Positions 8,580 through 20,000 of a stretch of DNA of 20,000 nt are shown piece after piece. The stretch is from contig PS015032.1 of the NCBI GenBank assembly GCA_048213135.1, positions 200,986 through 220,985 of the forward strand. Direction: 5' to 3'. The notes under the pieces are model-generated. The model did no database searches and had not been told where the DNA came from. It saw only the letters and a list, made by a program, of their open reading frames with translations. Source of the DNA: Reclinomonas americana ATCC 50394 (Eukaryota). The translations under genes were made by a program, and so were the position numbers. The stretch's first letter is position 1, and each line of letters begins with the position of its first letter.

Positions 8580-10621
8580 ATGGGCAGCAGCAACAGCCGT
8601 GACAACATTGTCATCAAAAGCGGCAAACCGAGCAACATGGGTTCATCCCTTTGCGGTCACGCGGACGTACGGCGCACCGATGTGCCTATCGGCGATAGTA
8701 GGCGACCAACAAACGCTCACATGGCGAATAGCGGGCCGAGGGTCGTGCAGAGTGGATATGGAGGAGTTGCTGATCTCCCCGCAAGTATGAATCATGCGGT
8801 TGAGGAACTGGAAGGCGACTGTGCGAAAGCCATCCCACGCGACGGTCGGAGCGTTAGACAGCAGTTGCAGACCACGCCGACACTGGTCCAACAGGATAAC
8901 AGAACACAATGCACTGCGCCGCCGCAGACGAGCGAGGCCACTGGAGGTCAAGCAGGATCGGGTGATCGAACAGATGAAGCGCCGGACTCAGCTGCTGCAG
9001 ATCTTCTGGTGGCAGAAAACATGCAGCTGCGGCAGGTGGTGGATCAACTGAGGGCTGAACTGGACAAGGTCACCGCTCGTGCGACTCTCGATGCCGCGGG
9101 CTACGAGGAAGCAAAAGCAAGCAAGGACCGGGCATATAGGAACCTGCAAGCCAATTGCGACACTCGAATTCGCGCGCTGGAGCTCCACAACGCTCAACTT
9201 ACCCGACGAGTCGAGGGCAGCATGTCAGAGGCCTGCACTGACGCAGCAGCAATCCAGGAGTGGAGGAATTTGATTCTCCGATCTGAAGAGGAAGTGCAGG
9301 CTCAGAAGGCAGAATTCGAGGCTCGAATTCGCAAGCTGGAGCAGCAGAACGCTCAACTCATCCAACGAGTTGAGGGTGGCATGACGGAGGACTACGCCGA
9401 CGCAGCAACAATCCAGGAGTGGAGGAATTTGATTCGCCGATTGGAGGAGGAACTGCGACAGCAGAAGGCAGATTACGACGGTCGGATTCGCACGGTGCAG
9501 CGCAAGTACGAGGATCTTGTCCAGCTTGTGAAGGGCGGCATTGCCGGCGTTAAGGAGAAGGTGGTAGATATGAAGGACGACTGTGACACTGCGCTCGAGC
9601 AAGTAACAGACGACGTCACCATCTCCACCGTCGACAGCGTTACATCGCCACCAGCCGTGGGCGGATCGTCGTCTGTCGTGTTCATCAATCCACTGGCTGC
9701 GCCCGACAACGCCGACGGACGACTGGTGTTCTCGGATCCGAGTCCACTGCGACCACTTCGGCCTCCGGTGCCCGTCACCAACGTCTCCGTGCTGCTGCTT
9801 TCCACCGCCGCGGCCCCACCGTCGCAACCACAGCAGCGTCGACAAGACGAGTCGCTCGTCACCATGGTGCACCACGCGCTGACGCCCGTGGTCGGCGCAT
9901 ACGGACAGCGCGAGCGGCCAATGTTGCGCGTCAGCATTACCTGTATCTCCGACGCCTCGCAAGTCGTTGACGCCCATGACGAGCGCCATCACTGCATTGT
10001 GGTGTGCCACCCGATGGAGACGCGCGTACATCCGGCCGACATTCGGGAGGCTGCGCAACGGCGGGGAGGTGAGCACTTCTTCCAGGATGAAGGCGTTTTC
10101 GACAGCTGAGTTTGACTCCTCCTCGTCGCAGTCAACACCGACGACCCTCGCGTGGTTGTCTTGCTGGTGCTGCCGAGCAACGGCACGGAGGATTTGGTGA
10201 GCATGGCGTCGAGCATGCGTTACGGGGTGACCAAGACGAGCACGGAGGATCCGGTGGAGTTGGAGCGGCAGGCGGTGCGCTTTGACGATCGATTCGGGTT
10301 TGTGCATGTGGAGAAGAACCAGCGGACGGGCGAGAGAGTTGCGTGGGAAAAGGGGGCGGAGGAGAAAGGAGGAGGAAAGGTGCTGACAAGTGGTGGTGGT
10401 GGTGGTGGCAGGCGATTGGGAACACGGGGAAGAAGGAGCTGGGCGAGTTTTGTGGGCAGTGTTTGGTGCCGGTGTGCAAGCAGGCGTTGCAGGGGGTGGT
10501 GGAGAGGGTGGAGGAGGAGGTGGTGGTGGTGGCGAGTGGGTCGGGAGGTGGGCTGGAGGGGGATCCGGAGAGAGCGGAGGATCGGGATTTGGAGGCAGGG
10601 AGGATGGCGTTGTCGCAGTGA
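8580..10621 (+). CDS. Gene A: coiled-coil protein (about 634 aa) with N-terminal MGSSNS myristoylation-type motif, 53-aa repeats and the C-terminal alpha/beta domain shared with B and C
   Basis: Exons 8580-10068, 10132-10337, 10412-10621 (1905 nt, ends TGA). Donors gtgagc and gttgcg, acceptors cgcag and ggcag. The phase-1 intron before VNTDDPRVVVLLV is at the same position as the introns before [14 protein letters not shown] (B) and VDLLDGRSVLVIL (C). The start codon is inferred; an upstream acceptor at 8571 lies near a gap. Confidence 0.75.
9150..9540 (+). repeat. Coding tandem repeat, 159 nt / 53 aa, about 2.5 copies, in the gene A coiled coil
   Basis: cg(a/g)attcgc (RIR) at 9165, 9324, 9483; atccaggagtggaggaatttgattc (IQEWRNLI) at 9252 and 9411. 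Confidence 0.93.
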
Positions 10622-10747
10622 ATGATCAGAGTTTTGTTGGAATGGAGGGTGGAAATGAAACAAAGTCCAGCCAGCGGGCGACACTCAGTGTCGCGTTTTG
10701 CCGGGAATGACAGGATTCGTCTGACATTTTCGTTTGTGTTTGCGGAG

Positions 10748-13700
10748 ATGGTGAGAGTGACTCTGGAATACAAGCGCATGCGCAATGACCCGCAGACTCC
10801 CATCAAGCAAGGTTTGTGAGCTCGCACTCCAGAAAAAAACAAATGCGCTGCTTGCAACTCAAACATGCGTATGGCTTGCAGTGTTTGTATGCATTAAGGA
10901 TGGCGCGACAGGGAAGTGGCCGCAGTTCACTCTGGGCCAGGAGCTCTCCTCAGGTGTCAAAGAAGTTTTCGTTGACGAGGCGTTGAAGTGGACTGTTGAT
11001 GTGAATCTTGAGAGTGGCGATCGACGATTCATGGTGAGTGAATGAGAGAGAGAGAGAGAGAGAGAGAGAGAGAGAGAGAGAGAGAGAGAGAGAGAGAGAG
11101 AGAGAGAGAGAGAGAGAGAGAGAGAGAGAGAGAGAGAGAGAGAGAGAGAGAGTAGGTAGGTAGGTGGTGGTGGGTGGGTAGGGTAGGTAGGTAGGTGGTA
11201 GGTAGGTAGGTAGGTAGGTAGGTAGGTAGGTAGGTAGGTAGGNNNNNNNNNNNNNNNNNNNNNNNNNNNNNNNNNNNNNNNNNNNNNNNNNNNNNNNNNN
11301 NNNNNNNNNNNNNNNNNNNNNNNNNNNNNNNNNNNNNNNNNNNNNNNNNNNNNNNNNNNNNNNNNNNNNNNNNNNNNNNNNNNNNNNNNNNNNNNNNNNN
11401 NNNNNNNNNNNNNNNNNNNNNNNNNNNNNNNNNNNNNNNNNNNNNNNNNNNNNNNNNNNNNNNNNNNNNNNNNNNNNNNNNNNNNNNNNNNNNNNNNNNN
11501 NNNNNNNNNNNNNNNNNNNNNNNNNNNNNNNNNNNNNNNNNNNNNNNNNNNNNNNNNNNNNNNNNNNNNNNNNNNNNNNNNNNNNNNNNNNNNNNNNNNN
11601 NNNNNNNNNNNNNNNNGAGTGACGAGAGGAGAGGAGTAGAGAGAGAGAGAGAGAGAGAGAGAGAGAGAGAGAGAGAGAGAGAGAGAGAGAGAGAGAGAGA
11701 GAGAAGAGAGAGAGGAGAGAGAGAGAGAGAGTGAGTGAGTGAGTGAGTGAGTGGGTGTGTGGGTGGGTGGGTGCGAGAATGTGATTGAGAGCTCGAGTGA
11801 GAGGAAGAGTTCTTGAGATGATTGTCGTGCGTGTACCATCTTTGTGTGCGTGTGGACGCGTTTGTTGCTGCATGTTCATTTTGGTGCGACTCCTCGGCTG
11901 TGAATATCAAGGCTTCATTCGCTCGTGCAGCTGACATTTACTTATGGTTGTGCACGATGCAGTTCCTCGTCGTCGACCAAAAAGGCGACCAATCATGGCG
12001 AATGAGCGCGCAGAACGAGTGTGTCATGGATGAACATCTTGGAAGCAAGGTCAACCGACTGCTGATTGCAGCCCCGCGCAAGAAAACCTTGGATGACGAG
12101 TACAAGCATCGAGTCGCGGCTGAGTACGACCGAGACCAGTTGGCCATGCAAGTTGACGATCTCTCCAAGGAAGTGGCCTCCTTGCAAACGGAGAAAACGC
12201 AGCTTGCACTTTCTGTGGAGGAGTACGGCCGCAGGGTAGCAGAGCGAGATCGTCAACTGCGAGAGCTGGAACAGCAGCATATCAACCGCGTGCGCGATGC
12301 GGAGTCAGAAGCCGCCGTGCTGCGTCAGACGGCCGAACAAGCGTATCGGATGGTGACGGAACGAGACAACCGTGTGGCTCTGTTGGAGGCCGATAACAGG
12401 AATCTTCAAGCAGAACTTGATCGACTTCGCAGAGACCGCGACAGCTGTGAACGAGCAATTGCCGCCCTCCGCGCTGCGGCAATCGTGCCGCAACAACAGC
12501 CAGTATCCATTCCAGCGAGTGCCGCAGCGGGCTTTGAGGTCGTCGACGCAGACGAGAGACAACGATACGATGTACAGACGCGAGTGGACGAACTCCTTCG
12601 TCCGTGTCGCAACATCTTCGGCGTCTACGTTGAGGCTCCTGTTCGCCAGACACTGGAGGGCCTTGTCAAAGAACTGGACCAGCAACAAGAGGAGCTAGAT
12701 AAGTTCAGCAACAGCCTGGCCACGGTGACGAGCGAGCGGGACGGCCTGCGACGTGAACTGGTCGCCAGCTCATCGACACAGTCGGACAACAGCGATGTGC
12801 TTAGGCAGCAGCTTCACGACGCCATGCAGCAGCTGGTCGACGTCAACAAGCAGGTTGAACAGCTGGCTGCGAAACTGGAGGCCAAGGAGGTCGAGGTGCG
12901 ACAAGCGACTCGCCGATACGAGGACGCCAACTCTTGCATACGCGAGCTTGAAGCCAGGGCCACTCAACTTCAGCGTCAGCTGGACCAACTCCGCGGCGAG
13001 GCAAGTTGTGCCGCTACATTGGAGGAGTTCAACAGCACGCTGAAGTCTCAAGTCGCCGATCTCAAGGCAAAGCTTACGACCGAATCGGCGAGCGCAGACG
13101 AGTTCTACAATAGGGCGAAGGCGGAGAAGGCTCATGCGGATCAACTGCGGCAGAAGGTGAAGGCTTTGCAGCGTGACCTCGACATAGCTTACAGCAACAT
13201 CAAGGATATCACCGGCAAGCTGAACGAACTTGGATTGGCGAAGGTGGCGATTGAGGACGCGGCCCGCGAATGGGAGCGAGCTGCCCTCACCAACAAGTCG
13301 ATAATGGAGGAGCGCGGTGCGCTGCTCATGTGCGCGATGGATCGACTGGCGCGACTCGACTTCAACTCGCAGGTGGACCTGGAGCACTGGCGAGCAACTG
13401 TTGCGCATTCAGAGTCAGCTTCGTCTGCCTCAGTTGACGACAATTGCGAGCAGCAGCTTCGTGAGGCACTGGATTCTGCCCGCCAGCAGCTTGGGAGGCA
13501 GCTGGCTGGTCTTGATGACCGTGTGGACGCAACTATCAGCAGCTACGAAACAGCCTACGTTTATGCCACTACAGCAGCTCCAGATGCAGACACACCAACT
13601 CGAATTCAGCGACTTCTGCAGCACATCCATCGGCAGGTGATCGAGCCAACCATCGAATACCTGGAACAGCTTCTCGGTTGGTCGTCGGCTGAGCGACGAG

Positions 13701-19765: not shown

Positions 19766-19920
19766 GTGAGTGAATGCGAGATTGCGCAGTTGTGTGTGAG
19801 CGTGTGTGAGAGGGAGAGAGAGGGAGGGAGAGAGAGGGAGGGTGAGAGAGGGAGGGAGAGAGAGGGAGAGGGAGAAAGTTTGCCAAATAGTGAGCAGTAA
19901 GCGTGTGAGTGAGAAGGTCA

Positions 19921-20000
19921 TGTGTGTGTGTGTGTGTGTGTGTGTGTGTGTGTGTGTGTGTGTGTGTGTGTGTGTGTGTGTGTGTGTGTGTGTGTGTGTG
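19921..20000. repeat. (TG)n microsatellite in intron 2 of gene D
   Basis: Read directly from the sequence; runs to the window end. Confidence 0.95.

Follow-up and report, generated by a model that had tools for sequence, protein, structure and literature searches.

A polymorphic tandem family in Reclinomonas americana joining a CBM48-like module, a coiled-coil rod and an alpha/beta end domain: candidate sensor-adaptors

Non-catalytic modules of the CBM48 type joined to coiled coils are known from PTST1-3 and FLO6 (PMC4339375 and PMC6243121, in the parts of both articles available to us); in PTST the CBM48 binds starch and the coiled coils dock GBSS, and binding requires a Trp pair equivalent to W100 and W133 of AMPK (PMC4339375, same part). 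A fast-diverging AMPK1_CBM fused to ParA in bacteria has been proposed as a carbohydrate immune sensor that triggers multimerisation, and inactive nucleoside triphosphatase (NTPase) variants occur in this ParA-CBM system (10.64898/2026.10.19.760177, available in part). Fungal NLRs, according to the accessible part of PMC13449251, show presence/absence variation and domain shuffling. Here we describe a gene family of Reclinomonas americana ATCC 50394 whose products join an N-terminal CBM48-like module (N-module) through a long coiled-coil rod to an unnamed alpha/beta end domain (C-domain), which is a new layout. Four of its members, genes A to D, lie in the window, by which we mean the whole 20,000-nucleotide stretch that was analyzed (G000:C24:200986-220985, from a 108-Mb assembly of 16,441 contigs), whose sequence reads like that of an intron-rich eukaryote. 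The family resembles PTST in parts and NLR arrays or ParA-CBM in its evolution, and it fails membership of each. Our preferred reading, to which we assign a probability of roughly 0.4, is that these genes encode a lineage-restricted, polymorphic family of cytosolic sensor-adaptors at a recognition or defence locus, directed at non-self or at glycans.

In PTST and FLO6 the coils are N-terminal and the CBM48 is C-terminal (PMC4339375, in the part available); the family has the reverse order, as the original prediction had stated, and adds a further alpha/beta domain. Its module begins at Met1, leaving no space for a transit peptide, and is much more diverged than in PTST and FLO6, and the family differs further in being multicopy and polymorphic and in having a long rod. 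With the CBM48 of AMPK beta (PF16561) the N-module shares a weak collinear profile match and the phase-0 intron found in this genome's CBM48 genes, whereas other residues stand in place of the conserved GS/GF-type motif of strand 2 and of the Lys that precedes the intron, and the AMPK C-terminal domain is absent. AMPK beta carries an N-myristoyl anchor; in A a myristoyl-type anchor would stand in place of the CBM. The ParA-CBM proteins likewise fuse a rapidly diverging AMPK1_CBM-type module to another domain, but they are bacterial, have a C-terminal CBM and a real ParA domain, and the available part of the source, itself a prediction, describes no long rod; the family proteins contain no Walker A in their C-terminal stretches and gave no ParA family match in our library scans. 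Presence/absence variation and the exchange of terminal domains are shared with fungal NLR arrays as far as the accessible text portrays them. Unlike those arrays, the family has no NACHT/NB-ARC (Pfam gave no match to either at E<=1 for the long exons of genes A, B and C, the NTPase being a separate neighbour gene) and no repeat sensor, and its order is inverted, with a variable N-terminus and a fixed C-terminus.

For the searches beyond this genome the queries were pieces of exons or a single frame with its intron, rather than the whole N-module, which reduces their sensitivity. Residues 1-150 of B exon 3 found no relative among 771 candidates, the B/C-domain profile A5 none at E<=0.001 among 1.84 billion representative proteins, and the A-type half-domain profile none among 8000. 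Contig scans of viral, metagenome and prokaryote collections gave no relative, tblastn against plasmids gave only 7 chance-level matches, and the Atlas gave nothing usable for C and, for the half-domain of F, no more than leads (0.81 and 0.76). No paper describing this layout was found in the literature covered, which excluded most subscription journals. The earlier claim that the architecture comes from no characterised family agrees with these Pfam, protein and profile searches.

Searches of the genome itself found at least 16 copies, distributed over two loci, with 8 on contig C24, 6 on C173 and one pair on C611/C509, the copies beyond C24 lying only on these last three contigs, and this bears out the predicted expanded and diverging family of N-module, variable rod and C-domain. 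In the 160 kb around the window the members on C24 stand in the order H, F, (NTPase gene T), G, (DENN gene), A, B, C, D, E. Their layouts differ: B, C and E have the N-module, the rod and a C-domain of the B/C type; F alone combines the N-module and rod with a C-domain of the A type and so links the two C-domain subtypes; D has the N-module and rod without a C-domain; G and H have the rod and C-domain without an N-module; and A has a myristoylation-type start, the rod and an A-type domain.

The family's behaviour shows in a comparison of C24 with C173. The two are collinear over about 90 kb (164-256 kb of C24), mostly at 77-97% identity, and the collinearity breaks at 212-226 kb, where the best matches are paralogous and reach 66-76%. 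They are probably two haplotypes of one locus; they may instead be two strains or an old duplication. The member count is 8 on C24 versus 6 on C173, and between the DENN gene and the right flank it is 5 (A-E) versus 3. Background pairs (a prime marks the other copy) are 92-98% identical with a synonymous divergence (dS) of 0.06-0.15: T/T' 94%, the H rod 95% and K/K' 92-98%. By comparison, F and F' are 38% identical in the N-module, 62% in the rod and 98% in the C-domain, where the ratio of nonsynonymous to synonymous divergence (dN/dS) is 0.11; A and A' are 39% identical in the front and 98% in the C-domain (dN/dS 0.05), and can be aligned only from residue 217 of A and 150 of A' onward. B' carries a B-type N-module on an F-type rod, which is 73-96% identical to the rod of F in 6 successive 70-residue windows; the F and B' rods form a clade with support of 100/100, and on C24 the F rod is some 40 kb distant. 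Duplication, loss and recombination turn the family over, and the copies place different fronts on near-identical C-domains. Differing gene numbers together with exchanged front halves are typical of recognition or defence genes. The copy-number difference, the module swapping and the NTPase gene in the array, all of which lie outside the window and so escaped the original prediction, draw the reading away from a simple scaffold and closer to a recognition locus.

The haplotype contrast could also be an artefact of co-assembled strains, an old segmental duplication or short-read mis-joins of paralogues, with some of the models wrong, and the many contigs and gaps of the assembly, its bacterial-looking contigs and the gaps within intron 2 of B and of D speak for this. 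However, the B'/F and A/A' switches fall inside gap-free exons, the exchanged parts are 73-96% and not 100% identical to their source, which is unlike mis-joins, and near-identical contig pairs recur for unrelated genes. For the family itself, C509 pairs with C611. The polymorphism would persist even between two strains, and we regard an artefact as very improbable.

The CBM48-like character of the N-terminus, claimed earlier, was supported by profile and by intron position. The CBM48/CBM20-like module occupies 10748-12082 (+) in B (residues 1-112, exons 1-3) and 14843-15331 (+) in C, where the assignment follows from the profile match and the intron register. Single exons as queries gave no Pfam match to a CBM family (AMPK1_CBM PF16561 included), the module spanning three exons. 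A CBM48 profile of 251 sequences, derived from 120 bacterial proteins and one gene of this genome, singled out 10 of 18 family proteins, namely 10/10 with the N-module and 0/8 of the others, in one register and at a weak 1-9 bits. In the reverse search, a hidden Markov model of the N-module averaged 4.4 bits over 482 CBM48 domains, nearly all from one bacterial family and hence non-independent, versus -1.3 for reversed and -1.0 for shuffled domains, and exceeded 3 bits for 338 of the 482, compared with 1 of the reversed and 6 of the shuffled domains. It is the intron that decides the matter. In 7 of 8 CBM48 loci examined in this genome (4 distinct genes; one locus is spliced through) a phase-0 GT donor lies six codons past a conserved Gly, the same phase-0 junction occurs in all 9 family models compared, and CBM20 matches that cover the intron-bearing strand read through the donor position. 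Because this register is shared, descent of the N-module from an AMPK-beta-type CBM48 appears probable. The equivalent of W133, the second glucan-binding Trp, is kept in 9 of 10 modules, and glucan binding may be considered a candidate role. Separately, an AMPK-beta-like CBM48 gene (L043, L051; C3579, C1275) has a phase-1 acceptor four codons upstream of the site of family intron 1 (phase 1), which is near and not identical.

The C-domain called for a revision of the original prediction, which had A, B and C sharing one domain and one intron. This stood for B and C, whose domains (14012-14554, + and 18479-19067, +) are 35% identical at E 3.6e-11 and belong to a B/C subtype represented by an alignment of 7 members. 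The domain of A (9768-10490, +) represents a distant second subtype, common to F and G (37% identity to F, 98% to A'): A had no BLASTP match to B or C at E<=0.01, and the subtypes are connected by no more than a match between profiles (score 29.0, probability 31%, 66 columns; maximum of 50 column shuffles 16.6) and a phase-1 intron in the same aligned position. The phase of the last intron differs, being 0 in A and 1 in B/C. A single C-terminal domain for the whole family was therefore given up, as two distant subtypes exist and D has none.

In both its subtypes the identity of this domain is best expressed as graded possibilities. Its sequence alternates hydrophobic strands with helices; among 18 C-terminal stretches of 200 residues none has a G1 motif, a G4 motif or a P-loop/Walker A, DxxG is scattered with no consistent G3, and no catalytic motif was found, and the domain is probably non-catalytic. 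Against this genome's Arf-family profile, a candidate chosen by eye ahead of testing, the B/C subtype scored 28.3 with a probability of 30% over 73 columns (maximum of 50 shuffles 17.8), compared with 12.6 for receiver and 15.4 for TIR domains; the likeness covers switch II to strand 5, hhalign probabilities of this subtype for Arf were 10-30%, and of 17 single Arf pieces 4 outscored all 230 bacterial decoy windows. The A subtype has no Arf signal (12.4, with 15/50 shuffles higher), PDB sequence searches returned no Arf at E<=10, viral contigs contained no Arf seed, and with G1 and G4 absent the likeness to Arf-family GTPases is a lead only. The C-domains scored 15.4 and 16.1 with a 6-sequence TIR_2 profile, close to the control level, their pieces had no TIR/SEFIR match in Pfam, PADLOC or NCBIfam, and this genome has no CAP12-type TIR seed. 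For the A subtype a likeness to CAP12-type TIR, or to an uncharacterised teleost domain, is no more than conceivable. From the sequences we would give even odds to some other alpha/beta fold, consider a degenerate small-GTPase fold doubtful, and think a TIR/SEFIR-like fold quite unlikely. A receiver-domain identity was rejected (12.6 and 13.3, inside the shuffle range), as were PDB matches to designed kelch repeats (only summed 4-7 bit matches), to ZapA (coiled-coil likeness) and to a lysine hydroxylase. Fold models were uninformative, both for a C-domain including its in-frame intron (predicted local distance difference test, pLDDT, 53.5; the intron modelled as part of the sheet; best Z 4.1) and for the A-type half-domain (pLDDT 51.1, best Z 6.3).

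The Arf likeness of the B/C-type domain (28.3, 30%), the retained second Trp in 9/10 modules and the PTST design of CBM48 plus coiled coil (PMC4339375, in the part available) speak for metabolic or trafficking tethers, in which the CBM48-type module would sit on glycogen, the rod would span and the C-domain, maybe Arf-like and nucleotide-free, would dock an enzyme or membrane, duplications having split housekeeping tasks. We think this unlikely: housekeeping proteins are not expected to vary in number or to show 38%-identical targeting modules between copies, the genome retains separate canonical CBM48 genes beside the family, the A subtype lacks the Arf signal, and the Arf idea arose by eye and was not recovered from the PDB.

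Much of the length of most family proteins is rod. That of A spans 8985-9536 (+, residues ~136-319) by a heptad scan, with only sub-threshold coiled-coil matches in Pfam; that of C spans 15580-18300 (+) by the same kind of scan and has a conserved block at 16529-17131; and the rod of B has a conserved helical block at 13274-13855 (+), which in alignment A9 is 44-69% identical to C, F and K and has 9 matches in the genome. A simple home-made scan counted heptad-like residues at 443/896 positions in B and 628/1311 in C. A starts with MGxxxS (8580-8597, +), which by its fit to the consensus we take to be of the N-myristoylation type; the pattern recurs in A' on an otherwise unalignable N-terminus, in keeping with the putative lipid anchor suggested for A in the original prediction. 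No clear membrane segment was found, the top 19-residue hydropathy being 0.8-1.7 in 17 of 18 models and 2.05 in H, and, as tentatively as the preferred reading of which this is a part, we take the proteins to be soluble, cytosolic and lineage-restricted.

The large share of rods would also suit lineage-specific structural proteins, cytoskeletal or cortical, whose diversity is a neutral by-product of tandem-array recombination in a genome of high heterozygosity, with end domains that serve as caps or assembly modules and a CBM that is a relic fold; all dN/dS values are below 1, the between-copy background divergence is already high and no catalytic motif was found, which agrees with such a view. 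Yet F, outside the A-E run, exchanged its entire front while its C-domain stayed at the background level of divergence, A and A' kept MGxxxS on unalignable N-termini, and the NTPase gene lies inside the array on both copies. We judge the structural explanation rather unlikely.

Gene T (C24:188611-190284, L010:7626-9299) is an intronless gene for a P-loop NTPase of 558 residues with weak AAA matches and a tentatively TIR/SEFIR-like tail; it sits between F and G on both copies and is 94% identical on C173. In the sensor-adaptor reading, the variable front would bind either a membrane or a glycan (an alpha-glucan, or another one if the specificity has shifted), the rod would dimerise and set the reach, and clustering would gather the conserved C-terminal domains, which could then recruit a partner, with T as the candidate. 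Members missing a part (D, without a C-domain; G and H, without an N-module) may modulate the others through rod pairing. A more specific version, which we hold only as a doubtful possibility, is a receptor free of its own NTPase, in which an AMPK-type CBM48 was turned into a hypervariable glycan sensor, was joined, through recombination between haplotypes, to a constant and undescribed signalling domain (a pseudo-GTPase, perhaps, or a TIR-like fold), and would signal to the NTPase-TIR/SEFIR partner in the array. The anatomy and the swapping are observed; binding, oligomerisation, the partner and an immune role we infer from them.

Several results weigh against the sensor-adaptor reading. On the side of the N-module, the 482 domains of the reverse search are non-independent, the hhalign score with CBM48 is a weak 18.5 (probability 4%, 0/60 shuffles), an 8-sequence CBM20 profile gives an equal 18.7, CBM48 and CBM20 score 37.7 with each other, far above either, and the first Trp, invariant in 10/10 modules, is set by hhalign three positions off the CBM48 Trp (W100). 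The C-domain lacks an assigned fold. The tail of T scored 16.9 with TIR/SEFIR (0/25 shuffles, but an unrelated control also had 0/25), and its C-terminal domain gave no match to the family C-domain (10.9 and 11.2). As for variation, B/B' and C/C' are paired solely by gene order, K/K', which stands alone at its locus, shows no hypervariability, H/H' is conserved over the modelled part of H' (to residue 467), and unequal crossing-over in any tandem coiled-coil array yields chimaeras without an immune role. Paralogue pairs of the N-module have dN/dS of 0.12-0.68, many with saturated dS; no pair among those compared exceeds 1, which indicates purifying selection on the family frames and gives no evidence of positive selection.

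All exon junctions of the family genes were predicted from the genomic sequence. The predicted four co-oriented genes, separated by 126, 288 and 397 bp, have open spliced frames, the 126 holding given the A intron at 10338-10411. Gene A (8580-10621, +; exons 8580-10068, 10132-10337 and 10412-10621) encodes 634 residues without a CBM-like module, and the phase and donor of its second intron agree with the second intron of F and G; a model without this intron, which gave a Trp/Arg-rich tail and an A-B gap of 122 bp, was dropped. Gene B (10748-14554, +) has five exons (10748-10811, 10882-11033, 11963-14225, 14287-14442, 14499-14554) and encodes 896 residues; its intron 2 (11034-11962, +), phase 0 and in the CBM48-intron register, is enlarged by microsatellites and an assembly gap. 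Gene C (14843-19067, +; exons 14843-14906, 14997-15157, 15221-18716, 18792-18950 and 19012-19067) encodes 1311 residues, and its intron 18717-18791 is in frame and stop-free. Gene D (+) occupies 19465-20000 of the window with exons 1-2 (19465-19522, 19596-19765) and the start of intron 2, which also contains an assembly gap; with exon 3 at C24:222196-224220 it encodes 750 residues and ends outside the window at C24:224220, after the rod. As predicted, B, C and D have intron positions and N-terminal sequence in common, namely intron 1 (phase 1), intron 2 (phase 0) and the first 110 residues, with BLASTP identities of 49% over 741 residues for B and C (E 6e-176) and 50% over the first 76 residues for B and D.

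Among the 23 introns modelled on C24, 22 are GT-AG, 20 are 56-90 nt long and 18 contain a loose branch-point-like motif, a count made without a chance control. The one GC-AG case is intron 1 of F (L011:2589-2655, C24:173574-173640). Downstream of its last exon, F has several degenerate repeats of that exon (L011:7130-7900), and a similar repeat occurs at G.

Other features of the surroundings were recorded. The 3' part of the DENN-domain gene occupies 84-8245 (+) of the window, with PF02141 over its cut-off on two exons and a Cys-rich exon at 5340-5540; the gene separates G from A, is conserved on C173, and has, by eye, imperfect tandem repeats of about 120-180 bases in introns at window positions 4800-5340 and 6200-7320. 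A 1528-codon coiled-coil frame with many near-identical 14- to 21-residue repeats, in which the family end domain was not seen, lies 12 kb upstream of H (C24:153269-157852, L013). Just after E, a 160-codon Pro/Gln/His-rich frame (L003:6848-7327, +) starts Met-Gly, has two Cys and no Pfam match, and may be the reverse strand of a low-complexity exon of another gene. Upstream of K are long beta-rich repeat frames, cadherin- or Ig-like by eye (C611:20932-23011 and C509:38036-40655). Contigs C1 and C2 (2.3 and 2.1 Mb) are intronless, with many response regulators and a Bacteroidota-type four-repeat CBM48 protein, and probably represent co-assembled bacteria.

Should the family prove structural or metabolic instead, it would still be a new CBM48-coiled-coil layout, though of modest interest. 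How free-living protists discriminate self from non-self or sense intracellular bacteria and viruses is largely open, and on the sensor-adaptor reading this locus would provide a small, testable set of sensor candidates and a counterpart in eukaryotes of the ParA-CBM systems predicted in bacteria.

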